NCBI GenBank assembly: GCA_038207085.1
Contig: JBBRAE010000001.1
Location: forward strand, 160,001 to 224,000
Reading direction: 5' to 3'
Origin: Armatimonadota bacterium
GTDB taxonomy: Bacteria > Armatimonadota > UBA5829 > DTLH01
DNA length: 64,000 bases
Both the position numbers and the translations under genes were made by a program. A model generated the notes under the pieces. That model worked only from the letters and a program-made list of their open reading frames with translations. It ran no database searches and was not told the origin of the DNA. Shown piece by piece: positions 19,838 through 53,986 of the stretch. Position 1 is the first letter of the stretch. Every line of letters begins with the position of its first letter.

Positions 19838-19972
19838 AATCCGCTTCGTCCGCCTGCTTGTTTTTGTTCGCGTGGTCGCGAATGCATGAGCTTGCGCGCG
19901 AGGACGGGTCAAGTATTGCGTGGATACACTCATCTGCGCGACAGTGTTTATCATAATGGGAGGATCATACAC

Positions 19973-21505
19973 TTGAGTTATCTTCTGGGTATTGACGTCG
20001 GTACCAGCGGCACCAAGGCCTTGATTATCGACAGTTCGCGTGATGGGGCAGCAGTCGGCTCCGCTACAGTGCTTTATCCACTTTACACACCGAAACCCCT
20101 TTGGGCCGAACAGAACCCCGAGGACTGGTGGAACGCGACCGTATCCGCGGTCGCCCAAGCGATTCAACAGGCCGGAATCGCCGCCAAAGAGATCAAAGGC
20201 ATCGGGCTTTCTGGCCAAATGCACGGGTCGGTCTTTCTTGACGAAAATGACGCAATACTTCGACCAGCGATGCTCTGGTGCGACCAGCGAACATCCGACG
20301 AATGCGCCTGGATCACCGACACGATTGGCTTTGATAATGTAATCGAGCTCACCAGCAACCCCGTGCTTACGGGGTTCACTGCGGGCAAGATCATCTGGGT
20401 TAGAAACAACGAGCCCGAGGTCTACAAGAAGATTCGCAAAGTCCTGCTTCCCAAAGACTACATCAGGCTCAAGCTAACCGGCGAGTATGCGACCGAGGTG
20501 TCGGACGCTTCAGGTACATCGCTCTTCAATGTACGAAAGCGCATTTGGGCCGATGAGATGCTGGACGGAATTGGTGTTCCAAGGGACTGGATGCCGAAGT
20601 GCTACGAGTCTCCTGAGGTCTCAGGCAAGGTTAACGAAGCCGCAGCAGCAGCGACCGGACTTGCGGTCGGAACGGCTGTTGTCGGAGGCGGTGGAGACAA
20701 CGCGGCAAGCGCGGTCGGAAACGGTATCGTCGAGCCGGGACTCACGTTCTCGTCGCTCGGCACATCAGGCGTCGTCTTTGCTTACTCGGACGAGCCCGCT
20801 GTCGACCCCAAACTGCGCGTGCACACATTTTGCCACGCGGTGCCGGGCAAGTGGCACCAGATGGGCGTTGTGCTCTCAGCAGGAGGCAGCCTGAGGTGGT
20901 ATCGTGACACATTCGCAGACGCCGAGTGTACAGTTGCCAAGTATATCGATGGCGATCCCTACGATATCATTGCAGAGGAAGCTGAAAACGTCACCCCGGG
21001 GTGCGAGGGGCTGATATTCCTCCCCTACCTCACCGGCGAGCGCACACCACACGCCGACCCCTATGCTCGCGGAGCATTTGTCGGGATCACCCTGCGCCAC
21101 GGCAAGCCGCATTTCGCCCGCTCCGTGATGGAAGGCGTCGCCTACGCGATGAAGGACTCTTTTGAGATCCTGAAAGAGATGAATGTTCCGATCACCCAGG
21201 TTCGCGCGACCGGCGGCGGCGCAAGAAGCGCGGTCTGGAGACAGATGCAAGCCGACGTTACAGGACTTCCTCATGTTACGATCAACACGGGTGAAGGCCC
21301 CGCGCTCGGAGTCGCGCTCCTTGCAGGCGTCGGAACCGGCGTCTATTCAAGCGTGAAGGACGCCTGCCACTCGACGATCAAAGTCGACCTGTCGACCGAC
21401 CCTATTGCTGACAACAGTGCGGCATATAACCGGTACTATCCGGTCTATAAGTCGCTTTATCAGTCTCTCAAGGGCGACTTTAGCACCGTCTCGAAGATCG
21501 AGTAG
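19973..21505 (+). CDS. xylB: Xylulokinase (FGGY family)
   Basis: LGIDVGTSG, GLSGQMHG, LWCDQR, GFTAGK, LLPKDY, GGGDNAA, LPYLTGERTP, GGGARS; TTG start after GGGAGG. Confidence 0.93.
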   Translation: MSYLLGIDVGTSGTKALIIDSSRDGAAVGSATVLYPLYTPKPLWAEQNPEDWWNATVSAVAQAIQQAGIAAKEIKGIGLSGQMHGSVFLDENDAILRPAMLWCDQRTSDECAWITDTIGFDNVIELTSNPVLTGFTAGKIIWVRNNEPEVYKKIRKVLLPKDYIRLKLTGEYATEVSDASGTSLFNVRKRIWADEMLDGIGVPRDWMPKCYESPEVSGKVNEAAAAATGLAVGTAVVGGGGDNAASAVGNGIVEPGLTFSSLGTSGVVFAYSDEPAVDPKLRVHTFCHAVPGKWHQMGVVLSAGGSLRWYRDTFADAECTVAKYIDGDPYDIIAEEAENVTPGCEGLIFLPYLTGERTPHADPYARGAFVGITLRHGKPHFARSVMEGVAYAMKDSFEILKEMNVPITQVRATGGGARSAVWRQMQADVTGLPHVTINTGEGPALGVALLAGVGTGVYSSVKDACHSTIKVDLSTDPIADNSAAYNRYYPVYKSLYQSLKGDFSTVSKIE

Positions 21506-40563: not shown

Positions 40564-40727
40564 GCAATTGGTTGTACAATCGCATGTTTGCAGATACCAT
40601 CAACAGCGCCATTGTTCTGGTTATGAAATCACCTGTCACACCGATTTAGAGCGGCCACAGACTGCTGAGGATGATAGTGTGCCAACGTCGGCTCTTTGGC
40701 TGTATGATGGAGATGAAGGGAGACAGA

Positions 40728-43700
40728 ATGTCCAGACAACGCCTAATATTCTCACTTGTGGTCGTCGCAATGCTGCTTATCGCATCTCCGGTGCTCGCGG
40801 CTACGTTCAATCTTGCCACAGACTGGTCAAGCACGGCAAATCCCAACGGCCAATGGTCATACGGTTGGGTAGATGCTACTTCAGGTGCATTTTCTCCATA
40901 CAACGTTCACCCATATCAGCAATACTGGTATCCCGGGCAGAGCTATTGGTGCGTCGGGCAGGACTTGTATGGCTACGGCAACGCGAATAAGAACCTTGCC
41001 ACCGGGACAGTCGTATTCTATAACGGCGGATCCGCGCGCAGGACTACTGCTCGATGGGCCAGCAACGCAACTGCTAGCGTCTACATCTGGGCGACATTTA
41101 CTGCTTCATCTAATGGCACCTACTACAACCCCATCAGATGCGCGGTCCGCCGAAATGGTATTGAGCAGTTCGCGACAACGTCGAGCTATAACAATACGCT
41201 GCGCATCGCGGGAAGCATTAGTGTGAACGCCGGCGACTCCCTTGATATCTGCACGGGGGCCGTTCCTGGAGCGACTGGTCAGACGCAAAATTACGTAACG
41301 CTCAGCGCAATTATATCGACAGATCAACCCGGGACTGTCTCTGGGACGGTATACTCCAACCTCACCGGGCATCCCACGGTTGGTCACGCTGTTATAAAGA
41401 CGTCGGACGGAAAATACTCCACCACCTCCGACGCAAGCGGCGCTTACACTCTGGCGCTACCGCCCGGGTCGTACGCCCTTGTGGCCTCTGAGAATCGGTT
41501 TGCGTCTGATCAATCTGAGCAAATCAGCATCAGCCAGGGGGCTAACACCCCTCTCGACTTCGACCTTATCGCTGGAAGCTTGACGGGCACCGTAACCTCC
41601 GACACTGCTGGAAACCCGCCGATAGCGGGAGCGATCGTCCGCACCGATGGTAGCCCAAGTTACTCGGCGAACACCGGCGCCGACGGTGCCTATACACTCT
41701 TTGCCCCACAGATTGCCTCCACAACACGCCTTCTTGTCGCTGCGCCGGGCCACGACCCGCAGCGAGACGCTCTCGCTCTTTCGGCAGGCCAGACGAAGAG
41801 CAAGAGCTTTGCACTTCGCCCGACAGGGGCCGGGATGCTCATCAATCTTCCTGCACCGGGTGAGTGGGGTGAGCCAGGTATGGCCCCGACTGCTCCCGGA
41901 GATGCATTTGCTGTGAAGTTCTCGAACCCTACGGCGCTGCCGAGTCCCGGAGCGCCTGCTATCAGCGGTTGGAACGAGACTATCAAACCTGATGAAACGT
42001 TCACTATGACCGGAGTTCGCTTTACAGCCCGAACAGGCGTGGATACCGGAACCGATACGGTCGTCTGGCTCTATGCAGACACACCTTCGGGCGGCGTGCT
42101 TCGCCAGATTAAAGTGTGGCGGGTCACAGCGTCGAGCTTGACTGCGCTTATGCCTAGTGACATACCATTTGGGATGTATCTGGTCTGGATAGAAAACGAG
42201 GACGGAGTAAGCGCGCCGGTCACTGTCAACAGAACTACATCACAGTGGATTGGCCCGCTTGGCGCATCCGGCGCGGCAGGGGCGACCAAGAGGGTTTTTG
42301 GTCGGAATGTGTCCTCCAACCACGGAACTACATCGAGTTACGTGTATATTCAGCCTGCTGAGGGTGGTGCGTTTACGCAGTGCGCCGTCACGCAGGTCGA
42401 GCCATACGCGGTCTGGTTTACCATCCCGTCGGGAACGGCGAACGGCTACTACAAGGTCTACTTGCACAACGGACACGGAGGCAGGTACGGATGGAGCGAC
42501 CCCGTCGATCTCTCAGTTGCTCCAGACTGGACCAGAGACCCGGCGCAGGTTGCGGTGACCCCGAACGGGACGAACGACTCAATTAACATCCAAAACGCGA
42601 TCGACAGTCTGTCGCTCAACTCTAACGGCGGCACTGTAGTGCTTTCGGCGGGTGACTATATCTTGAAGGGTGGTCTGGACCTAAAGAACGGCGTCGAGAT
42701 CAAGGGCGCTGGAATGAACAGCACCAGGTTGCTCGCACAGCTGACATCCGCGGTCGCCGTCGTTAAGATCACCGGTGTGAATACTGCGCTCACAGATCTC
42801 ACGATTCGCTCAAAATCCGGGTTTACTAACCCTCAAGGCGAGATCACCAACGTTGCAGGTTCAAGCGACGCGAAGTTCTTGCGCATCAGGATTGAGTCCG
42901 ATGCCGGTATCTACTCAGGAAGCTTCAGCACACCGCTTCGCAGCGAGGTTGTCGGCTGTGAATGCAACCGTGAACCTGACCCTGCCGGACGCGCCTGGAT
43001 CCATAACTCGACCCTGTACGGTGACTTCCACTGGGCGACCGAGGCCGCGTTGAACCTTATGACTAACTACAATGTGGTAGAGTACAGCCACGTTGAGACA
43101 AAGAACTGGCCGGTTAGCCCTACCGGCAGCAAGAACTACACTCAGTTTATGACGTGGGAAGAGTTCAAAGACATCGTGTGGTCGATGAGAATCGCGCTCA
43201 CATACTGCTCTTACAACTACATCGCGCACCTGACGAGCAAAGATGTCGCCGTTCAGACGAACAAAGGTGAGATGATACTCTTCCACGGCCACGCCGCGTA
43301 CTGGTATGGCAACGTGATCACGTGCGACGGCACCAGGCTGACATTGCGGACCGATGGTCTTGTTGACGGGCAGCCTTCTGTGATTAACAACTATAGCGAC
43401 ATACACCTTGCTGGCGGGCAGATGGTCCCGGATGGTCCGGGAAGCTGGTACGCGCTTGACGGCAAGTATATATCAATCCTGGCAGGCGCGGGGTTCGGCG
43501 AGTCGAGAAGAATCGTTTCGCATACCCCGACCACAATCACAATAGACCGACCGTTCAGGGTGAACCCGGACGCAACATCAAAGGCGATGGTCCAGACCAG
43601 CTTTCAGGGAAACATCATATACAAGAACGATCTAAATGCCTTCCCTGTGGGTTATGACCAGACTGAGGGTTCGGCCAGCGTCGCAGTAGACATAGACGGC

Positions 43701-46316
43701 AATGGCTGGTCCAACATGTTCGAAGGCAACGTGTCCCACAGAACCAGAAGTGGATGCGCAATACTCTCAGTTTCCGGTGGCCCCAGCTACTGGAACGAGG
43801 CGAGAGATCACGAAGCCTACGATGTAGAAAGCGGCGGGTTCCAGATGATACCACGCGATGACCAGGCGATCGGGCCTGACCTCGTAGGCAACAGATACGA
43901 AGGCGGCATCATCAATGTAACTGGCAGCGCTGGCGGCGCGATCCACGCTGATGGTGGAGACGGCAACGCCTGCGAAGGGATCACCGCAACATCCAAACGC
44001 GGCATCTTTATGACTCACGGTGGCTACGATTGGCACCCAGCGACTCCCAACGGGCTCACGCTCTATCGCAATAACACCGTAACGACAGTCGATGCGCCTA
44101 CTTCACCCTCATCCCCGCAGCCAGTATATGTCATGAACGCAGACAGCTTGCAGTGGTTGATGAACAACAAGTATACGAACTCTTCCCAGCCATATGTGCT
44201 TGCGTCTGGAGTCGGGATGTATTCGACCCCGGTCGCTATGCGCAAACTGGTGAAGATCACCGGCTATATGGGCTACCCGATTGATGAGGTCTTGCTCGAA
44301 GTTGCAAATGTGGGATTATCGGGGATGACCTGGACTGCCGCGGCGAGCGCGCCGTGGATTGTGCCAACTGTGCTGAGTGGCAACCCCACCGGGCCGGAAA
44401 GCGACATGGGGCGGCTCCAGATCGCCGTCAATCCCATTGGACTTGCTGCTGGAAGACACTGGGGGTATATCGACATTCTCGCCGGCGCAAAGATCGCACG
44501 AGTCGGTGTTTGCCTTGATCTTTCCTCCGGCGCACCGCCATCGACTGCTCCTGTTGCGAGCTTTACAGCGACTCCTACGGTCGGCACAACGCCGCTTGCC
44601 GTATCGTTCGATGCCAGGTCTTCAGTAGCCCCAGGTGGCTTGATTACGAGCTACGTGTGGGAGTTCGGAGACGGGTCAACGGGCTTGGGCGATGTCGCCA
44701 GCCACGCGTATTTGGCTGGAAGCTACACTGCTACACTAACCGTAACTGACTCCAACGGCATCAGTGATACTGACAGAAAGGTGTTTACAGTCTACCCTGC
44801 AGTCAGCTCCATCTCGATATCCGGGTCCCCTACCCCCTTGACCGATGTTGGAACCCAGGTTACCTTTACCGCGTCTGCCGTGGGGGGATATGGCACAAAA
44901 TACAAGTTCCTGCTCAAGACTGGCAACGGTGGATGGGCCACCATGCAGGACTATTCAACTGCCGCAACGGCTTCATGGACTCCGACTGCTTCCGGGTTCT
45001 ATGCCATCAAGTGCCACGCACGGGCAAGTGACTCCACCCGGGTATACGACGCTACAAGCAAGGAACTCAGCTACCCTGTAGGCATTCTGCCAGCTAGCGG
45101 TATGGCGCTTTGGCTGAAAGCCGATGCAGGCACTACCCTTGACGCTTCGGGGAAGATAAGTGACTGGGCAGACCAGACATCAGGTTCAACAAAGAAACTT
45201 ACCCAGACGACCCCTAACTACAGGCCTGGTATAGTCCAAGGAGCGCTTAACGGCCAACCGGTTGTGCGATTTACGAGTGCCTCAACCTACCTTTCAACTA
45301 CCGCTTCCGTGCTCTCGGGTGCGACACCCTTTACAGCATTCACCGTGGCACGAGTCAACAGCAACCCCGCCTATAACTACCAGCATTTCTGGTGGTGCGG
45401 CACGGACTCAATCTATGCCGGTTATGCCCAGTGGATGACAACTTCAGGCAGACTTAGGGCAAGCTGGGGAAGCTCCGGCGCGCTGATATCCACATCAACG
45501 GCGGCAACACTCAGCAGTTGGTACACAATTGCGAGCCGCTATGCTCCCGGGCTCCACGAGATGTGGCTCAACAGCACGCCGGTGAACACCTCCATCAAGT
45601 CAGACTCGAACTTAGCTGCCGGGTTCACCGTCGGCAACTCTGTGTCCAATTGCCAAGGGCTCTACGGTGATATCGCTGAGCTCTTGATATTCTCAAGAAA
45701 GCTCACGGAGACCGAGCGCCAGGGCGTAGAGCAGTATCTCAGTGTAAGGTGGAGCAACCCTGTACCTGTGGCCGTCGACCGACTGAAAGACGTCAAAGCA
45801 CTCGGTGACGGTGTGCTCGTATCGATCTCAACGTCAAAAACTGCGATCACAGACTCAGGAGTCTACTCGGACGGCGGCGTCTACGTAAGCGAGGCTGACA
45901 GAACGTGTGGGCTCAAGATAACGATCGCGGACGTTGTACAGGCTTCGGAAAGACTGACTGTTACAGGAACCACGGACACGGATGTCCTGACCGGCGAGAA
46001 GGTGTTCAGGGTTACTTCATTCAGTAAAGACGTGGGGGAGAAGGTCAATCCTCTTGGAATGGCGAACAAGACCTTAGCTGCTTCCGGTCAGCTTCTGCGG
46101 GTGTGGGGACGTGTGAAAGAAAAGACCGCATCTTACATCACTCTTGACGACGGCTCGGGAGTGCCTGCAAAGGTTCAGATCGACGGGCTTACGACACCTA
46201 TAACGAGTCTGCCGGGAGTCGGTGACTACATAAGCGTGACCGGACCGGCAGGGGTGACGGCCGGAGGAGGAACCGCGATAAGGGTCCGATCCTCAGTCGA
46301 CATCAAAGTCTATTAG
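40728..46316 (+). CDS. Large secreted multidomain protein (carboxypeptidase-regulatory-like repeats, beta-helix/pectin-lyase-like core, BACON-like, PKD, LamG-like, C-terminal OB-like pair)
   Basis: Signal peptide ending SPVLA; GTVSGTV..SDASGAYTL twice; DSINIQNAID..GGTVVLSAGDY..IKGAGMNST; APVASF..YVWEFGDG..TLTVTD; LWLKADAG..W..LNGQPVVRF..GDIAELLIFSRKL; VWGRV..LDDGSG..GDYISVTG..RSSVDI. Confidence 0.8.
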   Translation: MSRQRLIFSLVVVAMLLIASPVLAATFNLATDWSSTANPNGQWSYGWVDATSGAFSPYNVHPYQQYWYPGQSYWCVGQDLYGYGNANKNLATGTVVFYNGGSARRTTARWASNATASVYIWATFTASSNGTYYNPIRCAVRRNGIEQFATTSSYNNTLRIAGSISVNAGDSLDICTGAVPGATGQTQNYVTLSAIISTDQPGTVSGTVYSNLTGHPTVGHAVIKTSDGKYSTTSDASGAYTLALPPGSYALVASENRFASDQSEQISISQGANTPLDFDLIAGSLTGTVTSDTAGNPPIAGAIVRTDGSPSYSANTGADGAYTLFAPQIASTTRLLVAAPGHDPQRDALALSAGQTKSKSFALRPTGAGMLINLPAPGEWGEPGMAPTAPGDAFAVKFSNPTALPSPGAPAISGWNETIKPDETFTMTGVRFTARTGVDTGTDTVVWLYADTPSGGVLRQIKVWRVTASSLTALMPSDIPFGMYLVWIENEDGVSAPVTVNRTTSQWIGPLGASGAAGATKRVFGRNVSSNHGTTSSYVYIQPAEGGAFTQCAVTQVEPYAVWFTIPSGTANGYYKVYLHNGHGGRYGWSDPVDLSVAPDWTRDPAQVAVTPNGTNDSINIQNAIDSLSLNSNGGTVVLSAGDYILKGGLDLKNGVEIKGAGMNSTRLLAQLTSAVAVVKITGVNTALTDLTIRSKSGFTNPQGEITNVAGSSDAKFLRIRIESDAGIYSGSFSTPLRSEVVGCECNREPDPAGRAWIHNSTLYGDFHWATEAALNLMTNYNVVEYSHVETKNWPVSPTGSKNYTQFMTWEEFKDIVWSMRIALTYCSYNYIAHLTSKDVAVQTNKGEMILFHGHAAYWYGNVITCDGTRLTLRTDGLVDGQPSVINNYSDIHLAGGQMVPDGPGSWYALDGKYISILAGAGFGESRRIVSHTPTTITIDRPFRVNPDATSKAMVQTSFQGNIIYKNDLNAFPVGYDQTEGSASVAVDIDGNGWSNMFEGNVSHRTRSGCAILSVSGGPSYWNEARDHEAYDVESGGFQMIPRDDQAIGPDLVGNRYEGGIINVTGSAGGAIHADGGDGNACEGITATSKRGIFMTHGGYDWHPATPNGLTLYRNNTVTTVDAPTSPSSPQPVYVMNADSLQWLMNNKYTNSSQPYVLASGVGMYSTPVAMRKLVKITGYMGYPIDEVLLEVANVGLSGMTWTAAASAPWIVPTVLSGNPTGPESDMGRLQIAVNPIGLAAGRHWGYIDILAGAKIARVGVCLDLSSGAPPSTAPVASFTATPTVGTTPLAVSFDARSSVAPGGLITSYVWEFGDGSTGLGDVASHAYLAGSYTATLTVTDSNGISDTDRKVFTVYPAVSSISISGSPTPLTDVGTQVTFTASAVGGYGTKYKFLLKTGNGGWATMQDYSTAATASWTPTASGFYAIKCHARASDSTRVYDATSKELSYPVGILPASGMALWLKADAGTTLDASGKISDWADQTSGSTKKLTQTTPNYRPGIVQGALNGQPVVRFTSASTYLSTTASVLSGATPFTAFTVARVNSNPAYNYQHFWWCGTDSIYAGYAQWMTTSGRLRASWGSSGALISTSTAATLSSWYTIASRYAPGLHEMWLNSTPVNTSIKSDSNLAAGFTVGNSVSNCQGLYGDIAELLIFSRKLTETERQGVEQYLSVRWSNPVPVAVDRLKDVKALGDGVLVSISTSKTAITDSGVYSDGGVYVSEADRTCGLKITIADVVQASERLTVTGTTDTDVLTGEKVFRVTSFSKDVGEKVNPLGMANKTLAASGQLLRVWGRVKEKTASYITLDDGSGVPAKVQIDGLTTPITSLPGVGDYISVTGPAGVTAGGGTAIRVRSSVDIKVY

Positions 46317-46391: not shown

Positions 46392-48089
46392 ATGAATATA
46401 GACGTAAGTTACACTCCATTCAGCCGCTTCGGCTCGTACATCGCGTTTTCACAGATCGACGACAGCAGAGCTAAGCTGGCCAACATCACGCCAGGGCTTT
46501 GGATGCGCTGCGTCCACGGAGATGCAGCCAAGGAGGTCTTTCGCCTTGAGGTTCTGGTTGACGGCGTGCCCGCGCCTTACGAGATATCAGCCGAACCGGC
46601 CGTGCTGACACTTTCCACTGAGCGAGGCAGCGTACGTGTGTGCATCTCAAGCACGGATCAAGTGCGCTTCCAGGGAAACGGCATTGGGCTGAGGCTAGTC
46701 GGGCGTGACGGCGCTAATAACTGCGCCATACCCCAACCTGAGGGACGCTGGCTGATCACAATGGCCACGGCGTTTCGCAACTACGTAGCCGTGCCGCTCG
46801 CGGGTGAGCTGAAGGTAGATGCCCCCTGGGGAATCGCAAAGTGCAACTATGTTCACGTCGATCTTCTGCCGGACTCAACAGAATTCTTTGATATCGCGCT
46901 TGATCAGGTCGTCGGAGCTTGGACACCCGGCGTCTATTCGAGCTCGTTTGATGATATCGCAGACGCGATTGACCATGAGTTCCGCCAGTTTGCCCAAGGG
47001 TGCGGCAGTGTGCCCACGGAGTTCGCGGAAACAGCAGAAGCGGCTGCCTATCTCAACTGGTCGACAGTCGTTCACCCCTGCGGGCTTTTAGGTCGTCCCG
47101 CTATGCTGATGAGTAAGAACTGGATGACCAACGTCTGGAGCTGGGACCATGCATTCAACGCGATGGCACTTGCCTACGGTCACCCGGAGCTTGCCTGGGA
47201 TCAGATGATGACCATGTTCGACCACCAGCAGCCCGAGGGCCAGATTCCCGACTTTGTAAACGATGTCGTCATGCTCTACTGCTTCGTCAAACCGCCGATC
47301 CACGGTTGGATCCTCTCCAAGATGATGGACGCCAACCCCTGGTTCAGAGACAAGTCACGCGTCGAGGAGATATACGAGCCGATGTGCAAGTTCACCGACT
47401 GGTGGTTTGCGCACCGCAACCCAGACGGCGACGGTCTGCCGCAGTACCACCACGGCAACGATTCTGGCTGGGATAACGGCACCGTGTTTGATATTGGTCT
47501 TCCAGTGAAAGGCTGCGATCTTGCAGCGTTCCTGGTGGTCCAGATGTCGGTCCTCGCTGATATGGCGACAATGCTTGGACGCGAAGAAGAGTCTAAGAAA
47601 TGGTCGGCAAGGTCTGATGAGACGCTTCAGAAACTCCTAGCCAAACTCTGGAAAGGCGATTGCTTTGTTTGCCCATCAGCGATCGACGGAAGCGTCACAG
47701 AAGAATCTGACAGCATCTTCACCTGTCTGCCGATTATTCTTGGAGATAAGCTTCCACTAGAGATTAGGCAGAAGCTTGCGTCTGACATCGAGCGCCATTT
47801 GACGGAATGGGGACCGGCAACCGAAAACGTGGGCTCTCCGCTCTACGAACGTGACGGCTACTGGCGCGGCCCCATCTGGGCACCGCCGACGATGATCATC
47901 GCGGACGGGCTTCGCCGCGCGGGCTTTGATGATCTGGCAAAGGACGTAGCAGGCCGATTCTGCAAACTCTGCAAGAAGAGCGAGTTTGCCGAGAACTTCG
48001 ACGCTGTAACCGGCGAACCGCTCAGAGACCGCGCCTACACCTGGACTTCGAGCGTGTTCCTGGTGCTCGCGCACGAGTTCCTGTCCTAA
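46392..48089 (+). CDS. (alpha/alpha)6 glycoside hydrolase, GH63/MGH1-like
   Basis: VWSWDHAF, KPPIHGW, NDSGWDN, YWRGPIWAP, FAENFD, YTWT. Confidence 0.85.
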   Translation: MNIDVSYTPFSRFGSYIAFSQIDDSRAKLANITPGLWMRCVHGDAAKEVFRLEVLVDGVPAPYEISAEPAVLTLSTERGSVRVCISSTDQVRFQGNGIGLRLVGRDGANNCAIPQPEGRWLITMATAFRNYVAVPLAGELKVDAPWGIAKCNYVHVDLLPDSTEFFDIALDQVVGAWTPGVYSSSFDDIADAIDHEFRQFAQGCGSVPTEFAETAEAAAYLNWSTVVHPCGLLGRPAMLMSKNWMTNVWSWDHAFNAMALAYGHPELAWDQMMTMFDHQQPEGQIPDFVNDVVMLYCFVKPPIHGWILSKMMDANPWFRDKSRVEEIYEPMCKFTDWWFAHRNPDGDGLPQYHHGNDSGWDNGTVFDIGLPVKGCDLAAFLVVQMSVLADMATMLGREEESKKWSARSDETLQKLLAKLWKGDCFVCPSAIDGSVTEESDSIFTCLPIILGDKLPLEIRQKLASDIERHLTEWGPATENVGSPLYERDGYWRGPIWAPPTMIIADGLRRAGFDDLAKDVAGRFCKLCKKSEFAENFDAVTGEPLRDRAYTWTSSVFLVLAHEFLS

Positions 48090-48098
48090 TAACGCACG

Positions 48099-48127
48099 TC
48101 CGGGAGTCACTCACACTGGCTCCCGGA
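48099..48127. terminator. Hairpin after the glycoside hydrolase gene
   Basis: TCCGGGAGTCA-7 nt-TGGCTCCCGGA. Confidence 0.5.
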
Positions 48128-48243
48128 TATCTACCCCCAATCGCACAATTCCCCAAAATCCCTCCAAAAGAAGCAGGTAATCCCACGTTTTCTGGCGAAC
48201 TCATCATTAGCAAACTGTTTGCAAACAGGAGATGATCTTTACG

Positions 48244-49065
48244 ATGAGTTTGTTTTCATTGACCGGTAAGAACGCGGTTGTTCTCGGCGGCGCTGGCGTG
48301 CTCGGCTGTGATGTTGCCCGCGGGCTTGCTGCTAACGGCGCAAGTGTAGCTGTCGCCGACCTCTCGCTTGAGAATGCTCAGGCGCTTGCATCCAGCCTGA
48401 ACACGAACGGCGGCAAGTGCTCCGCCTATCGTGTTGATGCGATGCTCGCAGAGTCGCTTCAGGAAGTGTGCGACCAAGTTGTAGATGACTTTGGCCAGAT
48501 CGACATATTGGTTAACGCAGTCGGCGGCAATTCCAAGGCTGCAACCATCTCAAACGAGGTCGATTTCTTCAATCTGCCCATCCCGGCCCTCCAGAACGTT
48601 GTCAACCTGAACCTCTTTGCTGGGGCGATTCTTCCTTCGCAGATATTCGGCAAGGTGATGACAGGAAACGCCGACGGCGGTTCGATCATCAACGTGAGCT
48701 CCATGAACGCATTTCGTCCGCTGACGAGAATTGCGGGCTACTCCGCCGCAAAGGCTGCCGTAAGCAACTTCACCCAGTGGCTCGCAGTGTATCTTGCTCA
48801 GGCAGGGTATCCGATGCTCAGAGTGAACGCGATTGCGCCAGGGTTTTTCCTCACGGAGCAGAACAGATTCCTCCTCACCGACGAGAAGTCCGGAGAGCTT
48901 ACCGAGCGCGGGCAGAAGATTCTGGCTCACACTCCGATGAACCGTTTCGGCAACCCCGAGGACCTGATCGGCACACTCATCTGGCTCGCCTCCGACGCCT
49001 CGAAGTTCGTAACGGGGATCGTTGTCCCGGTTGATGGCGGTTTCTCGGCTTATAGTGGAGTTTAG
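48244..49065 (+). CDS. SDR oxidoreductase, D-mannonate oxidoreductase (fructuronate reductase)-like
   Basis: GGAGVLG, NAVGGN..AT, SSMNAFRPLTRIAGYSAAKAAVSNFTQWLAV, PGFFLTEQNR, HTPMNRFG, DGGFSAYSGV. Confidence 0.82.
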   Translation: MSLFSLTGKNAVVLGGAGVLGCDVARGLAANGASVAVADLSLENAQALASSLNTNGGKCSAYRVDAMLAESLQEVCDQVVDDFGQIDILVNAVGGNSKAATISNEVDFFNLPIPALQNVVNLNLFAGAILPSQIFGKVMTGNADGGSIINVSSMNAFRPLTRIAGYSAAKAAVSNFTQWLAVYLAQAGYPMLRVNAIAPGFFLTEQNRFLLTDEKSGELTERGQKILAHTPMNRFGNPEDLIGTLIWLASDASKFVTGIVVPVDGGFSAYSGV

Positions 49066-49069
49066 AGAC

Positions 49070-50365
49070 ATGGCAAATAGACCTCGAAATGTAGTCGTTG
49101 CGCAGTCCGGCGGGCCTTCGCCGGTCATCAACAACTCGTTGCGCGGCGTAATTGAAACCTGCAAGTCTATGCCCGACGTGTTCGGAACGGTCTACGGCGG
49201 TTGGCACGGCGTTGAGGGCCTTCTAAGGGAAGAACTACTCGACATCAGTAACCAGAGCCCTGAGGAGATTTCGCTTCTTCGGACGACCCCCGCTGCGGGA
49301 TCGATCGGCACATGCCGCTACAAGCTGAAGAAAGACCGGCAGGAAGACTTTGACAGGGTAATCGAGATATTCAAGGCCCACGATGTAGGATTCTTCTTCT
49401 ATATCGGCGGCAACGACTCGATGGATACTGCCCATAAGATCAGTGAGCTCGCCCATGAGAAGGGTCTTGACCTGATTGCCGTCGGCGTGCCGAAGACGAT
49501 CGATAATGACGTAGGTGACTCAGAGTTCAAGCTTATCGACCACACGCCGGGCTACGGAAGCGTCGCGAAGTATTGGGCGCACTATATCCAGTGCGCGAAC
49601 GAGGAGAACCAGGGTTCGTCCCCCGCTGATCCCGTGCTCGTCATGCAGGTAATGGGCCGCAAGATCGGCTTTATACCCGCTGCCGCGCGTCTCGCCGACC
49701 CGGATCGCCGTATGCCGCTACAGATATATCTTGTGGAGTCAGGCCTTTCGCTTTCAGACCTCGCCGATGGGGTTAGCGATCAACTGAGGACCGACGGACG
49801 ATGCCTGGTCGCCGTCAGCGAAGGGTTCAATGTCGGTGACATCGGCGAGATGAAGGATTCCTTCGGTCACACGACGTTCAGCTCAAGCCAGATCACAGTT
49901 GCTCAAGTTATCACCAATTACTTGAACAAGGTTGGACTTCCGGTTGGCGGCGCAGCGCGGTGTCAGGTGCCGGGATGCGACCAGCGGGATGCCATCGCCT
50001 ACGCGTCGACGGTCGACCTCGATGAAGCGTATCTCGTCGGCTGTAAAGCCGTCCAGGTCGCATTTCAGGACGGAAACGGCTATATGGCGACGATTCTCAG
50101 GAAGCCGGGCTCGATCTATAGCGTATACTACGACAAGGTCCCGCTTGAGAAGGTCGCAAACTCAGAGAGAACCTTCCCCAGGGAGTGGCTTTCCGAGTCC
50201 CGCACAGACGTGACAGACGAGTTCGTAGACTACGCGAGACCACTGATCGGAGAGGACTTGGTAAGCGTGCCGATGGTCAATGGCCTGATGCGTTTCGCGC
50301 GGTTTGAACCGAAGTTCGCAGACAAAAAGCTGCCGGACTATATGCCGGTTGGATATCGTAAATAG
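49070..50365 (+). CDS. PfkA-family kinase, PPi-dependent type
   Basis: QSGGPSPVIN, GTCRYK, IGGNDS (Asp) and PKTIDND (Lys) PPi signature, MGR, SEG. Confidence 0.88.
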   Translation: MANRPRNVVVAQSGGPSPVINNSLRGVIETCKSMPDVFGTVYGGWHGVEGLLREELLDISNQSPEEISLLRTTPAAGSIGTCRYKLKKDRQEDFDRVIEIFKAHDVGFFFYIGGNDSMDTAHKISELAHEKGLDLIAVGVPKTIDNDVGDSEFKLIDHTPGYGSVAKYWAHYIQCANEENQGSSPADPVLVMQVMGRKIGFIPAAARLADPDRRMPLQIYLVESGLSLSDLADGVSDQLRTDGRCLVAVSEGFNVGDIGEMKDSFGHTTFSSSQITVAQVITNYLNKVGLPVGGAARCQVPGCDQRDAIAYASTVDLDEAYLVGCKAVQVAFQDGNGYMATILRKPGSIYSVYYDKVPLEKVANSERTFPREWLSESRTDVTDEFVDYARPLIGEDLVSVPMVNGLMRFARFEPKFADKKLPDYMPVGYRK

Positions 50366-50401
50366 CAAGTTATTCAGAATATCTTGATGGAGGAAGTCAA
50401 T

Positions 50402-51289
50402 ATGTCAGATCCGGCACAGGCGCTGAAGGATCTTAAGAAAGAACACGAGTTTTTGGTCGGGATCGACTCCGACGGCTGCGCGTTCGATACGATGGAGATC
50501 AAACACAAGGAGTGCTTTATCCCCAATATCGTCAAATACTGGGACCTGCAGGCTGTCTCAAAGTATGCCCGCGAGGCTGCAGAGTTCGTCAATCTGTACT
50601 CCAAGTGGCGCGGAATCAACAGGTTTCCGGCGCTTCTGATGGTCCTTGATCTGCTCGAAGAGCGTGATAACGTCAAGAAGCGCGGCGTAACCATCCCCCG
50701 AGCTGAGTCGCTTCGCAAGTGGGCGGAGACCGAGACCAAGCTTGGTAACCCTGCCCTTATAAAGGCTGTCGAAGCCACCGGCGACCCCGTTCTCATCCAG
50801 ACGCTTGAGTGGTCCAAGGCCGTCAACGCAAGCGTTGAGGACATTGTCCACGGCGTGCCGCCGTTCCCGTTTGTCAGGGAGAGCCTGGAGAAGGTGCTGC
50901 CGCTCGCCGATATGGTCGTCGTTTCGGCTACTCCCGGCGAGGCACTCGTTCGAGAGTGGGAAGAGCATGACATCGCCAAGTACACCAAGGTGATCGCGGG
51001 CCAGGAGATGGGTAACAAGAAAGAGCATCTGAAGTACGCGATCGATGGTCGCTACCAGCCCGACCACGTGTTGATGATCGGCGATGCTCCCGGAGATATG
51101 AAGGCCGCAAAAGCCAACAACGCGCTCTTCTACCCGATTAACCCCGGCGACGAGGACACTTCCTGGCAGAGGTTCTACGAAGAAGCGTTCGACAAGTTCA
51201 TCGCTGGCGAGTACGCCGGTGAGTACGAAGCAAAGTTGATCGCAGAGTTCGACAAGTACCTGCCGGACACACCTTTCTGGAAGAAGTAG
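50402..51289 (+). CDS. HAD-superfamily hydrolase
   Basis: GIDSDGCAFD, VSAT, K, MIGDAPGD. Confidence 0.85.
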   Translation: MSDPAQALKDLKKEHEFLVGIDSDGCAFDTMEIKHKECFIPNIVKYWDLQAVSKYAREAAEFVNLYSKWRGINRFPALLMVLDLLEERDNVKKRGVTIPRAESLRKWAETETKLGNPALIKAVEATGDPVLIQTLEWSKAVNASVEDIVHGVPPFPFVRESLEKVLPLADMVVVSATPGEALVREWEEHDIAKYTKVIAGQEMGNKKEHLKYAIDGRYQPDHVLMIGDAPGDMKAAKANNALFYPINPGDEDTSWQRFYEEAFDKFIAGEYAGEYEAKLIAEFDKYLPDTPFWKK

Positions 51290-51291
51290 AT

Positions 51292-52536
51292 ATGATCGGA
51301 ACAGGATACCAAGACCGCCAGCTCACCGAGAGCGAGGCGGTCAACCTAATTCGTATAGCTCTTGAAAGCGAGAGCTTCGACGGCAAGCGTGTTCTTATGC
51401 TGCTGCCGGACCACACGCGTTCGGCTCCGGTGCCGATGATGTTCAAGGCGATCTACGAAGCACTGGCGCATCGAACAGCCGCGCTTGACGCTTTGATCGC
51501 TCTTGGAACGCATCCCCCAATGGCCGAAGAGCATATACATCAGCTCGTAGGCATCACGGGCGACGAACACGAGACTAAGTACTCCAAGACTACGTTCTAT
51601 AACCATATGTGGAAAGATCCCGACGCGCTCACGTGCGTTGGAACGATCCCCGAAGACCGAATCTTTGAGATCACCGAGGGAAAGTTCAGGATGCCGGTTG
51701 ATGTGGAGGTCAACAAGCTTCTCCTCGATTACGACCACATCATGATCGTCGGTCCGGTCTTCCCGCACGAAGTCGCGGGGTTCTCCGGTGGAAACAAGTA
51801 TGTCTTCCCTGGAGTCGCAGGTCAGGGGATAATCGACTTCTTCCACTGGCTTGGGGCACTAATCACAAACCCGGTCATCATCGGGACGAAATACACCCCG
51901 GTGCGCGGCGTGATCGACGAGGCTGTGAAGTATGTCCCCACGGAGCGGAGCGCCTTCTCAATGGTGATGCAGGGGCACGACCTGATGGGGATCTACTACG
52001 GTGACGTTGACGAATCGTGGTCAGCTGCCGCCGATCAATCCGACAAGCTCAATATCATCTACAAAGACAAAAGCTTTCACACCGTGCTTTCCCGCGCTCC
52101 TGAGATGTATGACGACCTCTGGACCGGCGGCAAGTGCATGTATAAGCTCGAACCGGTTGTCGCCGACGGCGGCAAGCTCATCATCTACGCGCCGCACATC
52201 ACCGAGATCAGCTATACTCACGGCAAGGTGCTCGACGAGATCGGGTATCATACCCGGGACTACTTCACGGCCCAGTGGGACAAGTTCAAGGACTACCCCT
52301 GGGGCGTCGTAGCCCACTCCACCCACGTCCGAGGCATTGGGATCTACGAAAACGGGGTAGAGAAGCCTCGCGTGGACGTGATACTCGCAACCGGCATCCC
52401 ACAAGAGCGATGCCGACAGGTCAATCTCGGGTACATCAACCCGAAGGACATCAACCCCAGCGACTATATGGACAGGGAAAATGAAGGCGTGCTCTATGTG
52501 CCAAGAGCCGGTGAGATGCTTTACAGACTGAAGTAA
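51292..52536 (+). CDS. LarA-family (nickel-pincer) 2-hydroxyacid racemase/epimerase
   Basis: PDHTR, ALGTH, NH, PHEVAGFSGGNK..PG, FFH, GGK. Confidence 0.87.
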   Translation: MIGTGYQDRQLTESEAVNLIRIALESESFDGKRVLMLLPDHTRSAPVPMMFKAIYEALAHRTAALDALIALGTHPPMAEEHIHQLVGITGDEHETKYSKTTFYNHMWKDPDALTCVGTIPEDRIFEITEGKFRMPVDVEVNKLLLDYDHIMIVGPVFPHEVAGFSGGNKYVFPGVAGQGIIDFFHWLGALITNPVIIGTKYTPVRGVIDEAVKYVPTERSAFSMVMQGHDLMGIYYGDVDESWSAAADQSDKLNIIYKDKSFHTVLSRAPEMYDDLWTGGKCMYKLEPVVADGGKLIIYAPHITEISYTHGKVLDEIGYHTRDYFTAQWDKFKDYPWGVVAHSTHVRGIGIYENGVEKPRVDVILATGIPQERCRQVNLGYINPKDINPSDYMDRENEGVLYVPRAGEMLYRLK

Positions 52537-52573
52537 CATAGCGATTTGTACGACTTTCAGCAAAGGAGATTCT

Positions 52574-53986
52574 ATGTCTAAAGCAAATATGGGTATGGTC
52601 GGGCTCGGCGTAATGGGCCAGAACCTTGCCCTGAATATGGAAAGCAAAGGCTTCAACGTCTGCGGCTACGACACCTCACGCGAGAAGGTCGATGCGTTCG
52701 TTAACGGCAAAGGCCAGGGCAAGAACGTCTGCGGCGCGTATTCGCTGCAGGAGCTGATCGACTGCCTGGAGAAACCTCGCAGAATTATGATGATGGTGCC
52801 GGCGGGCAAACCAGTTGATGAAGTTATCGACACTCTTGCACCGATGCTTGAGTCGGGCGATATTCTGATCGACGGAGGAAACTCTTACTTCCGAGACACT
52901 ACCCTGCGCACAAAGGCACTTGAGAGCCAGGGTTTGCTCTTCATCGGCACAGGTGTCTCCGGCGGTGAAGAAGGCGCGCTCCGAGGCCCGAGCATTATGC
53001 CCGGCGGCTCGCCTGACGCATGGCCCGCAGTACAGCCGATCCTCCAGAAGATCGCCGCCAAGGTCCCTGATGGCACTCCGTGCTGCCAGTGGGTCGGACG
53101 CGACGGCGCGGGGCATTTCGTCAAGATGATCCACAATGGCATCGAGTACGGCGATATGCAGCTCATCTCCGAAGCCTACTTCATCATGAAAGAGGCGCTC
53201 GGACTCTCAGCCGATGAGCTTCACGAAGTTTTTGCCGAATGGAACAAGGGCGAGCTTTCGAGTTATCTCATCGAGATTACCGCTGATATCTTTACCAAGA
53301 AAGACCCCGACACCGGGCTTCCGGTAGTCGATATCATTCTGGACTCGGCAGGCCAGAAGGGCACAGGAAGCTGGACGAGCCAGATCGCCCTTGAGTTCGG
53401 AGTCGCCGCACCGACGATCGCCGAAGCGGTCTTTGCGCGCTGTATTTCAGCGATCAAGAGCGAGCGGGTTGCGGCCTCCAAAACGCTTTCCGGCCCAGAC
53501 GCTAAGTTTGAAGGCGACAAGAAGCAGTTCATCGAAGATATTCGTCAGACGCTTTACGCATCCAAGATCTGCTCCTATGCTCAGGGTTTCGGCCTTATGC
53601 GCGAGGCTAACAAGGAGTATGATTGGGGTCTCAAGTTCGGCGATATCGCTCTGCTTTGGCGCGCAGGCTGCATCATCCGTGCCGCGTTCCTCGACCCGAT
53701 CAAAGAGGCGTTTGACACCAACCCGGAACTCCCGAACCTCCTGATGGCACCCTACTTCACTGATGCTGTCGATAAGGCGCAGAAGAGTTGGAGAAATGTT
53801 GTCGCCATTGCTGCTCGGCTTGGGATCCCAATCCCTGGATTCAGCTCGGCGCTCGCCTACTTCGACAGCTACAGACGCGACAGGCTCCCTGCGAACCTGA
53901 TTCAGGCGCAGCGCGATTACTTCGGCGCGCACACCTACAAGAGAGTCGACAAAGAAGGCACATTCCACACCGAATGGATCGATTAG
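52574..53986 (+). CDS. gnd: 6-phosphogluconate dehydrogenase (decarboxylating)
   Basis: GLGVMGQNLALN, DGGNS, VSGGEEGA, VKMIHNGIEYGDMQ, GQKGTG, GCIIR, QAQRDYFGAHTY. Confidence 0.98.
   Translation: MSKANMGMVGLGVMGQNLALNMESKGFNVCGYDTSREKVDAFVNGKGQGKNVCGAYSLQELIDCLEKPRRIMMMVPAGKPVDEVIDTLAPMLESGDILIDGGNSYFRDTTLRTKALESQGLLFIGTGVSGGEEGALRGPSIMPGGSPDAWPAVQPILQKIAAKVPDGTPCCQWVGRDGAGHFVKMIHNGIEYGDMQLISEAYFIMKEALGLSADELHEVFAEWNKGELSSYLIEITADIFTKKDPDTGLPVVDIILDSAGQKGTGSWTSQIALEFGVAAPTIAEAVFARCISAIKSERVAASKTLSGPDAKFEGDKKQFIEDIRQTLYASKICSYAQGFGLMREANKEYDWGLKFGDIALLWRAGCIIRAAFLDPIKEAFDTNPELPNLLMAPYFTDAVDKAQKSWRNVVAIAARLGIPIPGFSSALAYFDSYRRDRLPANLIQAQRDYFGAHTYKRVDKEGTFHTEWID

Follow-up and report, generated by a model that had tools for sequence, protein, structure and literature searches.

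A five-gene hexuronate cluster of an Armatimonadota bacterium with a PfkA-family enzyme as candidate sugar-acid kinase

The gene cluster and the genome that carries it

The window, i.e. the whole stretch of 64,000 nucleotides from contig JBBRAE010000001.1 of an Armatimonadota bacterium (assembly GCA_038207085.1) that was analyzed, contains a cluster of five genes, all on the + strand and packed head-to-tail with gaps of 4, 36, 2 and 37 bases (Table 1). They code for a short-chain dehydrogenase/reductase (SDR), a homologue of 6-phosphofructokinase (PFK), a putative phosphatase of the haloacid dehalogenase (HAD) superfamily, a homologue of LarA and the 6-phosphogluconate dehydrogenase Gnd. With high confidence the cluster is assigned to a hexuronate-to-pentose-phosphate route of the Thermotoga type. 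Here we describe the cluster, its recurrence in other genomes and the features of its products, together with the case for the PFK homologue as the kinase of the pathway.

The layout had been read in the same way in an initial annotation made from the letters of the window, and calls of open reading frames (ORFs) and family scans agree with it. The SDR scores 353 bits against NF006132 (cut-off 281), the D-mannonate oxidoreductase subfamily, a match at family level only. The PFK homologue reaches 375 bits with NF010675/PRK14072 (cut-off 273); its ORF spans 49022-50365 and probably starts with the ATG at 49070, 4 bases past the SDR stop. For the HAD protein (ORF 50384-51289, 31 bits with PF13419) the likely start at 50402 was taken from the family consensus. 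Gnd scores 737 bits with the equivalog model NF006765 (cut-off 413) and 728 bits with TIGR00873, and is the sole copy found in the genome (tblastn, one genomic match). No sigma-70-like and no terminator-like site was found on the + strand within the cluster. Genes for UxuA (mannonate dehydratase), Eda/KdgK-type enzymes and gluconokinase, which had been noted as lacking, are indeed not among the window ORFs, and the only FGGY kinase of the window (19886-21505) scores as XylB (595 bits, cut-off 380). The arrangement is far from chance, as these genes are found grouped again and again in related loci collected from three independent starting proteins.

Table 1. Position and predicted function of the features of the cluster (positions in the window)
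Feature	Position	Strand	Basis or remark
Candidate operator, 13-nt palindrome GCAAACTGTTTGC	48210..48222	.	AAAC directly after; about 10 nt 5' of the SDR start
SDR, predicted fructuronate reductase (D-mannonate oxidoreductase, UxaD/UxuB-like)	48232..49065 (alternative start 48244)	+	NF006132
PfkA-family enzyme, PRK14072 type, clade A; predicted pyrophosphate-dependent pathway kinase	49070..50365	+	NF010675
HAD-superfamily phosphatase with large helical cap; proofreading of 6-phospho-aldonates proposed	50402..51289	+	PF13419 (31 bits), HAD motifs
LarA homologue, GntE type, predicted nickel-pincer nucleotide-dependent D-mannonate/D-gluconate 2-epimerase	51292..52536	+	Lar_N, 4NAR match
Gnd, decarboxylating 6-phosphogluconate dehydrogenase	52574..53986	+	NF006765, TIGR00873

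Marker genes put the completeness of the genome, 3.35 Mb on 83 contigs, at 100%. Neither UxuA nor Eda is encoded anywhere in it, i.e. the classical lower pathway is absent, which supports the hexuronate route ending in Gnd that had been put forward. No P-loop GntK above cut-off was found in the genome (best TIGR01313 match 24 bits, cut-off 114), nor a PfkB kinase resembling those of the LarA loci described below; the three FGGY kinases of the genome score as ribulokinase, XylB and XylB-like, and none of them reaches the gntK_FGGY cut-off. Genes for Zwf and transaldolase are present. An ATP-dependent PFK and a canonical long PFK dependent on inorganic pyrophosphate (PPi; TIGR02477, 781 bits) are also encoded, which argues for a special role of the clade, here called clade A, to which the PFK homologue of the cluster belongs. 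A sedoheptulose-bisphosphate bypass was considered as a reason for this PFK and set aside as not needed, since the genome has a transaldolase.

The larBCE genes, which the initial annotation had proposed to look for outside the window, are represented by larE, a larB-like gene and larC at C1:262207-264910 (biosynthesis of the nickel-pincer nucleotide, NPN). The uxaC gene named together with them does not occur in its canonical form, as the Pfam UxaC model (PF02614) finds nothing in the genome; a uronate isomerase of another type does. The 13-nt palindrome in front of the cluster has exactly two exact copies in the 3.35 Mb, both followed by AAAC, and the second copy lies directly 5' of an operon on another contig (C18:260-3249, locus L215). 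The first gene of this operon (C18:269-1555, 428 residues) is without Pfam match and aligns end-to-end with the solved uronate isomerase Bh0493 (E 2e-164). The next gene (C18:1636-3249) scores 93 bits with PF16257 (cut-off 27.1) over profile positions 233-470 only and matches UxaE structures, i.e. it represents a divergent UxaE-family member with a PF16257 match limited to the C-terminal half. Because a Bh0493-type isomerase gene and a UxaE-family gene stand behind the same palindrome, the upper half of the pathway is, as judged by homology, present in the genome and probably shares a regulator with the window cluster. The palindrome is absent from the loci of relatives that were examined, and no LacI-type regulator orthologue was found. 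Explanations by another input (amino-uronates, redox isomerization via L-gulonate or L-galactonate, routes derived from fructose 6-phosphate), which presumed the lack of a uronate isomerase, were dropped for this genome because the Bh0493-type isomerase was found.

Recurrence of the gene set in other genomes

Around LarA, 80 genome loci were compared, many of them short and all retained. The SDR is present in 48 of them (counted as a homologue of at least 40% identity on the same strand), Gnd in 23, UxaE in 16, HAD in 14, PFK in 11, UxaC in 11 and an FGGY kinase in 4, and all 11 PFK-bearing loci also carry HAD and Gnd. In Phycisphaerae and Pirellulales the set takes the form PFK-UxaE-SDR-UxaC-HAD-LarA-Gnd, with a PFK of a different clade (clade B; 11/11 loci linked). 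In further LarA-Gnd loci the place of the PFK is taken by an FGGY kinase (L079, LarA-FGGY-Gnd) or by a PfkB kinase (L062, L206).

Around the PFK, 401 genomes of the phylum were searched, 83 of which have a PRK14072-type match. Clade A, defined in this set as a match of 58-100% identity, comprises 17 genomes including the one described here, and 17 loci were fetched from the 16 others. The PFK is adjoined by UxaE, SDR, HAD, LarA or Gnd in 13 of these 17 loci (12 of the 16 genomes); one remaining locus is a contig of 1 kb. The commonest order is LacI-UxaE-SDR-PFK-HAD-LarA-Gnd, with a full-length UxaE in the clusters of the relatives, and in locus L118 a Bh0493-type isomerase follows the cluster.

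Around the HAD, 80 metagenome loci were collected, 42 of them at least 6 kb in length. At least one pathway gene occurs in 63 of the 80 loci and in 38 of the 42 longer ones; the latter contain Gnd (28), UxaE (23), LarA (22), SDR (18), clade A PFK (16) and a PfkB kinase (4), and neither UxaC nor an FGGY kinase (0 each). The gene set is kept in these loci and the gene order is shuffled. Co-occurrence of the PFK clade and the HAD with SDR, LarA and Gnd genes, named in the initial annotation as a check, is found across phyla.

The HAD protein is encoded in 35 of the 401 genomes. Among the 17 clade-A genomes it is present in 14 and missing from G117 and G353, in which the PFK is unlinked, and from one genome that is 77% complete. 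It also occurs in 6 genomes of families f19 and f5 without any PRK14072-type PFK match. A clustered PFK entails the HAD, whereas the converse does not hold.

The Bh0493-type isomerase occurs in 124 of the 401 genomes, as compared to a match of the UxaC model in 58. All 17 clade-A genomes hold an isomerase, which is of the Bh0493 type in 15 and canonical UxaC in G117 and G353, two of the three genomes with an unlinked clade-A PFK. Reconstructions relying on the Pfam UxaC model would wrongly call the uronate isomerase missing.

Some loci carry additional genes. A second, distant type of LarA (29-31% identity to that of the window), with a very long branch in the LarA tree, is found in the PFK-HAD-Gnd or SDR-PfkB-LarA-Gnd-HAD clusters of L140, L142 and L206. 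In one complete genome (L123, 11608-15401) UxaE-SDR-PFK-HAD-LarA-Gnd stands behind genes for a LacI regulator, a GFO/IDH/MocA oxidoreductase and a class-III aminotransferase, all read from one strand. In L185, L199, L212 and L033 a xylose-isomerase-like TIM-barrel gene (PF01261) is found immediately 5' of UxaE or between Gnd and SDR. In the window, a gene resembling glycoside hydrolase (GH) family 63 and mannosylglycerate hydrolase (46392-48089) is located directly 5' of the cluster and is followed by a hairpin, CCGGGAG...CTCCCGG, at about 48100-48126; as this gene is present in 0 of the 80 LarA-centred loci, a link of the cluster to mannosylglycerate was dropped. The region 40671-46316 codes for a secreted-looking protein of 1881 residues that has CarboxypepD_reg, PKD and Y_Y_Y domains and, in one stretch, weakly resembles rhamnogalacturonase/pectate lyase (PF12708, 27.7 bits); it is possibly an enzyme of polysaccharide degradation encoded close to the uronate genes.

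Features of the PFK, HAD and LarA proteins

The best solved relatives of the window PFK are 3K2Q and 3HNO. GGNDS, PKTIDND and PGCDQR, the motifs listed in the initial annotation, all occur in the window PFK, as do MGR, EG and QR. We take the residues of the PPi type to be Asp and Lys at E. coli positions 104 and 124, and by its GGNDS and PKTIDND motifs the window PFK is predicted to be of this type. The ligands of the 6-phosphate of fructose 6-phosphate (F6P) are presumably E. coli R162, R243, H249 and R252; the equivalents of R243 and R252 are kept in clade A, whereas P and C/T stand at positions 162 and 249, where K and Y are found in the solved family members. The comparison of PGCDQR with the sequence LGHIQR, offered earlier as a clue to the substrate, proved to be the wrong one, since the solved members read DYLQR and the unlinked PFKs of the phylum are likewise altered. 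Reading the substrate specificity from the PFK motifs was given up, because the same motif states occur in unlinked PFKs. Further features specific for clade A are an insert of 5 residues after IDND and the sequences SSPADPV and MQAMGR.

The PFK tree contains 53 sequences and was rooted at the midpoint; rows shorter than 330 residues and one frameshifted row had been dropped, among them the intended ATP-PFK outgroup. Clade A (31 rows) is set off by a branch of 1.5 changes per column with a value of 100 in the Shimodaira-Hasegawa-like approximate likelihood ratio test (SH-aLRT), and 11 of its 14 unbiased genome rows are linked to pathway genes. The 9 tree rows of clade B are all linked and represent a second, separate recruitment among unlinked PFKs. 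Near relatives of the window PFK (at least 71% identity) originate, by source name, from Armatimonadota, KSB1, Elusimicrobia, Anaerolineae, Ignavibacteriaceae and others.

In the HAD protein the motifs DSDGC (including the Asp+2 residue), S-A-T, K and GDAPGD are invariant in 25 of 25 sequences. The single sequence gave no match to solved structures, and a profile search a weak match to the HAD core only. A model of the protein made with AlphaFold2 (predicted local distance difference test, pLDDT, 94) gave 141 Foldseek matches in the PDB at E<=0.001, the top matches listed being HAD enzymes. The best of them is 7OCS, the mannitol-1-phosphate phosphatase domain of A. baumannii MtlD (E 1.7e-6, query-normalized TM-score, TMq, 0.44); generic subfamily-I HADs come next, and beta-phosphoglucomutases are included among the fold matches. 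The ESM Atlas returned 'HAD family' clusters only. A HAD-Gnd fusion (P0243, 14 member sequences) consists of a HAD part of 56% identity and a complete Gnd, and members of the family with about 50% identity are fused to a Cof-type phosphatase (among P0246-P0263 and P0267-P0273). Based on the HAD-Gnd fusion and on the genomes that have the HAD without the PFK, we propose that the HAD protein would act as a genuine phosphatase whose partner is Gnd and not the PFK. Two apparent PFK-HAD fusions (P0265, P0269) are single sequences of half domains and were discarded as likely gene-call artefacts. Distant relatives of the HAD are fused to GH2, GH88, GH1 and sulfatase domains, i.e. to enzymes of the breakdown of uronate-containing glycans.

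The best solved relative of the LarA homologue is 4NAR, GntE2 of Thermotoga maritima (E 6.6e-67). The alignment to 4NAR shows conserved residues at the positions of R41, H154, K164 and H180, and the loop H154-E155-S156 of GntE2 reads H-E-V in the window LarA; E-V after the catalytic His is the signature of LarAH groups 18-20 (numbering from PMC7583248). The nearest NCBIfam entry, NF052594 (LarAH18-type 'nickel-dependent putative hexonate epimerase'), gave 172.7 bits, below its cut-off of 500, and by sequence the window LarA forms a related but separate GntE-type clade. In a FastTree phylogeny of 95 LarA sequences those linked to a clade A PFK are scattered, the starred branches forcing at least 6 changes, and they adjoin PfkB- and FGGY-linked ones (e.g. 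L124, L062 and L071 in one clade, support 99). A Lys or Arg that would set the 34 PFK/HAD-linked LarAs apart, by being conserved among them and not among the 47 unlinked ones, occurs in no alignment column. The mixed tree and the lack of an additional conserved Lys or Arg suggest that the substrate of the epimerase would be independent of the type of kinase.

Proposed route, alternatives and comparison with known systems

For T. maritima a UxaR-regulated operon aldH-pelB-gnd-uxaRED-gntEK is described (PMC3750489), UxaD is an SDR (PMC5673643), and a route from uronate via fructuronate and mannonate to gluconate/6-phosphogluconate and Gnd was proposed for Thermotoga (Rodionova et al. 2012, as cited in PMC3750489, PMC6978723 and PMC7583248). 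Since the window set is the core of the T. maritima operon with GntK exchanged for PFK and HAD, the route itself is not new, although the initial annotation had named it a candidate new hexuronate pathway. The cluster represents a genuine and widespread variation on an established pathway, with a plausible kinase assignment.

The reading to which we lean on balance is that the cluster encodes the lower half of this route, with the PFK as its kinase and the HAD clearing a wrong phospho-acid. The predicted enzyme activities, phosphate donor, phosphorylated substrate and role of the HAD would combine as follows. The Bh0493-type uronate isomerase and the UxaE-family epimerase from the other contig would make fructuronate, which the SDR would reduce to D-mannonate; the NPN-dependent GntE-type LarA would then epimerize C2 to give D-gluconate. 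A kinase, most likely the clade A PfkA-family enzyme using PPi, would convert gluconate to 6-phosphogluconate, the carboxylate of the sugar acid occupying the site normally taken by the 6-phosphate of F6P, and Gnd would yield ribulose 5-phosphate. The HAD would most likely remove a wrongly phosphorylated sugar acid, e.g. 6-phosphomannonate, that would block Gnd. For the single assignment of the PFK as the sugar-acid kinase of the pathway, which draws on sequence and gene context, the arguments are evenly balanced. The proofreading role of the HAD, taken by itself, is rather doubtful; it is modelled on PGP and Pho13, which remove 4-phosphoerythronate, an inhibitor of 6-phosphogluconate dehydrogenase (6PGDH).

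Several observations weigh against this combination. The altered positions 162 and 249 are common to 13 unlinked PFKs of the phylum, which are without R/K and H/Y there. The 16 metagenome PFK rows of the tree are linked by construction, as they were found through the HAD, and the clade-A loci L128, L129 and L131 (3/17) are unlinked even with flanks of 8 kb. The proofreading idea for the HAD leans on the PGP/Pho13 analogy and a weak fold match. Each of the 10 clade-A genomes searched has 1-6 FGGY kinases, and in the genome described here one of them (C21:12764-14266; XylB 371 bits, cut-off 380; gntK_FGGY 283 bits, cut-off 648) is located directly 5' of NikR and a CbiM-CbiQ-CbiO nickel/cobalt transporter on the same strand (C21:9620-14266, locus L214), by which context it could be a gluconate kinase serving the pathway of the nickel enzyme.

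This C21 kinase belongs to the alternative that survives best, though we judge it unlikely: the PFK would be an ordinary reversible PPi-dependent kinase of F6P or sedoheptulose 7-phosphate (S7P), pulling F6P and S7P formed from Gnd-derived pentose phosphates into glycolysis, and an unlinked FGGY kinase would phosphorylate gluconate. An ordinary activity of this kind would be compatible with the PFK sequence, since the score lies above the curated PPi-PFK cut-off, all catalytic motifs are intact and the R243 and R252 equivalents are kept; use of S7P is reported for relatives of the PFK family (PMC5673643). The cluster also holds the only gnd of the genome, so that genes of central metabolism do sit there. 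However, the genome already encodes an ATP-PFK, a canonical PPi-PFK and transaldolase, and clade A stands on a very long branch and is almost confined to this cluster across phyla. In other LarA-Gnd loci it is an FGGY or PfkB kinase that takes the place of the PFK, and the best identity to the C21 kinase in the 10 clade-A genomes searched is 31-39%, never within clusters.

A different order of steps, that of the initial annotation, appears improbable: the PFK would phosphorylate fructuronate at C1 with PPi, and SDR and LarA would act on the phospho-acids, so that 6-phosphomannonate would be turned into 6-phosphogluconate for Gnd. Chemically, fructuronate should occur as furanose only and be isosteric with F6P, with the carboxylate in place of the phosphomethyl group, and clade A keeps two anion-binding Arg without the residues at E. 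coli positions 162 and 249; these motif states, however, are common to unlinked PFKs. UxaE and SDR are the tightest neighbours of the clade A PFK (L119-L121, L125, L126). In extracts of Lactobacillus suebicus mannonate is phosphorylated first and 6-phosphomannonate is then epimerized (PMC6978723), and the Km of GntE2 for free mannonate is high, 17 mM (PMC7583248), both of which speak for the kinase-first order. GntE2, equated with LarAH20, nevertheless interconverts free D-mannonate and D-gluconate (PMC7583248), and this activity, together with the mixing of PFK-linked with PfkB- and FGGY-linked LarAs and the lack of an extra conserved Lys or Arg in the 34 linked as compared to the 47 unlinked LarAs, weakly favours epimerization before phosphorylation. 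The kinase-first order would also leave the HAD without a role.

That the HAD itself supplies Gnd with its phosphorylated substrate, by forming it or passing it on, e.g. as a phosphotransferase or mutase using PPi or a PFK-made bisphosphate, is very improbable: the HAD-Gnd fusion, the frequent HAD-Gnd and PFK-HAD adjacency, an Asp+2 residue typical of phosphatases and mutases and the beta-phosphoglucomutases among the fold matches would fit, but the HAD is present in genomes without this PFK type, its best fold match is a plain phosphatase, and no HAD that serves as a physiological sugar-acid kinase is known to us.

Sugars of the pectin and glucuronate type are a main source of carbon in soils, sediments and guts. 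A redox-neutral route leads by way of a nickel-pincer epimerase into the pentose phosphate pathway, and its use in engineering has been suggested (PMC6978723). Should the PFK-like enzyme prove to be its kinase, a new class of substrates would be added to the PfkA family and the step would be paid for with PPi, not ATP. In its widest form the proposal is that clade A would be the first PfkA-family enzyme with a natural carboxylate-sugar substrate (fructuronate, mannonate or gluconate), forming a 6-phospho-aldonate with PPi, that the HAD would clear the wrong 6-phospho-aldonate and so protect Gnd, and that this would be a widespread PPi-driven substitute for gluconate kinase in anaerobes of many phyla that degrade uronates; we put this forward tentatively, as a proposal that falls somewhat short of probable. 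A kinase role of the PFK-like enzyme, if confirmed, would also mean new names for thousands of database entries now called '6-phosphofructokinase' or 'HAD hydrolase'; for PFK and HAD alike at least 8000 homologues were scored, not all of this clade. A literature search found no publication in which this PFK or HAD is assigned a function in the breakdown of uronates, and new here are the link of isomerase and palindrome, the genome-level asymmetry of HAD and PFK, the fusions and the LarA tests.

Among known systems, the T. maritima operon is matched in Gnd, the predicted SDR fructuronate reductase, the GntE-type LarA and probably UxaE, and in a predicted course that leads from uronates to 6-phosphogluconate, not to 2-keto-3-deoxygluconate. 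It has an FGGY GntK, where the window cluster has a PfkA-family enzyme and a HAD phosphatase instead; also unlike T. maritima, the isomerase is of the Bh0493 type and the pathway is split over two loci with a common palindrome. The galacturonate route of L. suebicus likewise leads from mannonate to 6-phosphogluconate and Gnd without UxuA, KdgK and Eda, but ATP-using GntK-like kinases are suspected there (PMC6978723), whereas the candidate here is a PPi-type PfkA-family enzyme.

Of the single enzymes, Bh0493 of Bacillus halodurans (PDB 2Q08, 3HK5 and others) aligns over its full length with the product of C18:269-1555, a gene outside the window that is tied to the cluster by the common palindrome and by adjacency in the relatives L118, L127, L219 and L220. 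GntE2/LarAH20 (PDB 4NAR) is the best solved relative of the window LarA, with catalytic residues and NPN ligands conserved; the match is to this structure and not to a curated family, and the epimerase activity is predicted. The PRK14072-type 'short' PPi-PFKs (3K2Q, 3HNO) share with the window PFK the fold family, the subfamily score above cut-off and the motifs GG-x-D-S and P-K-T-I-D-N-D. The window PFK differs from them by an identity of about 40%, a long separate branch, the 5-residue insert and P and C/T in place of K and Y, and, unlike PRK14072-type PFKs in general, clade A is genomically dedicated to the uronate cluster.

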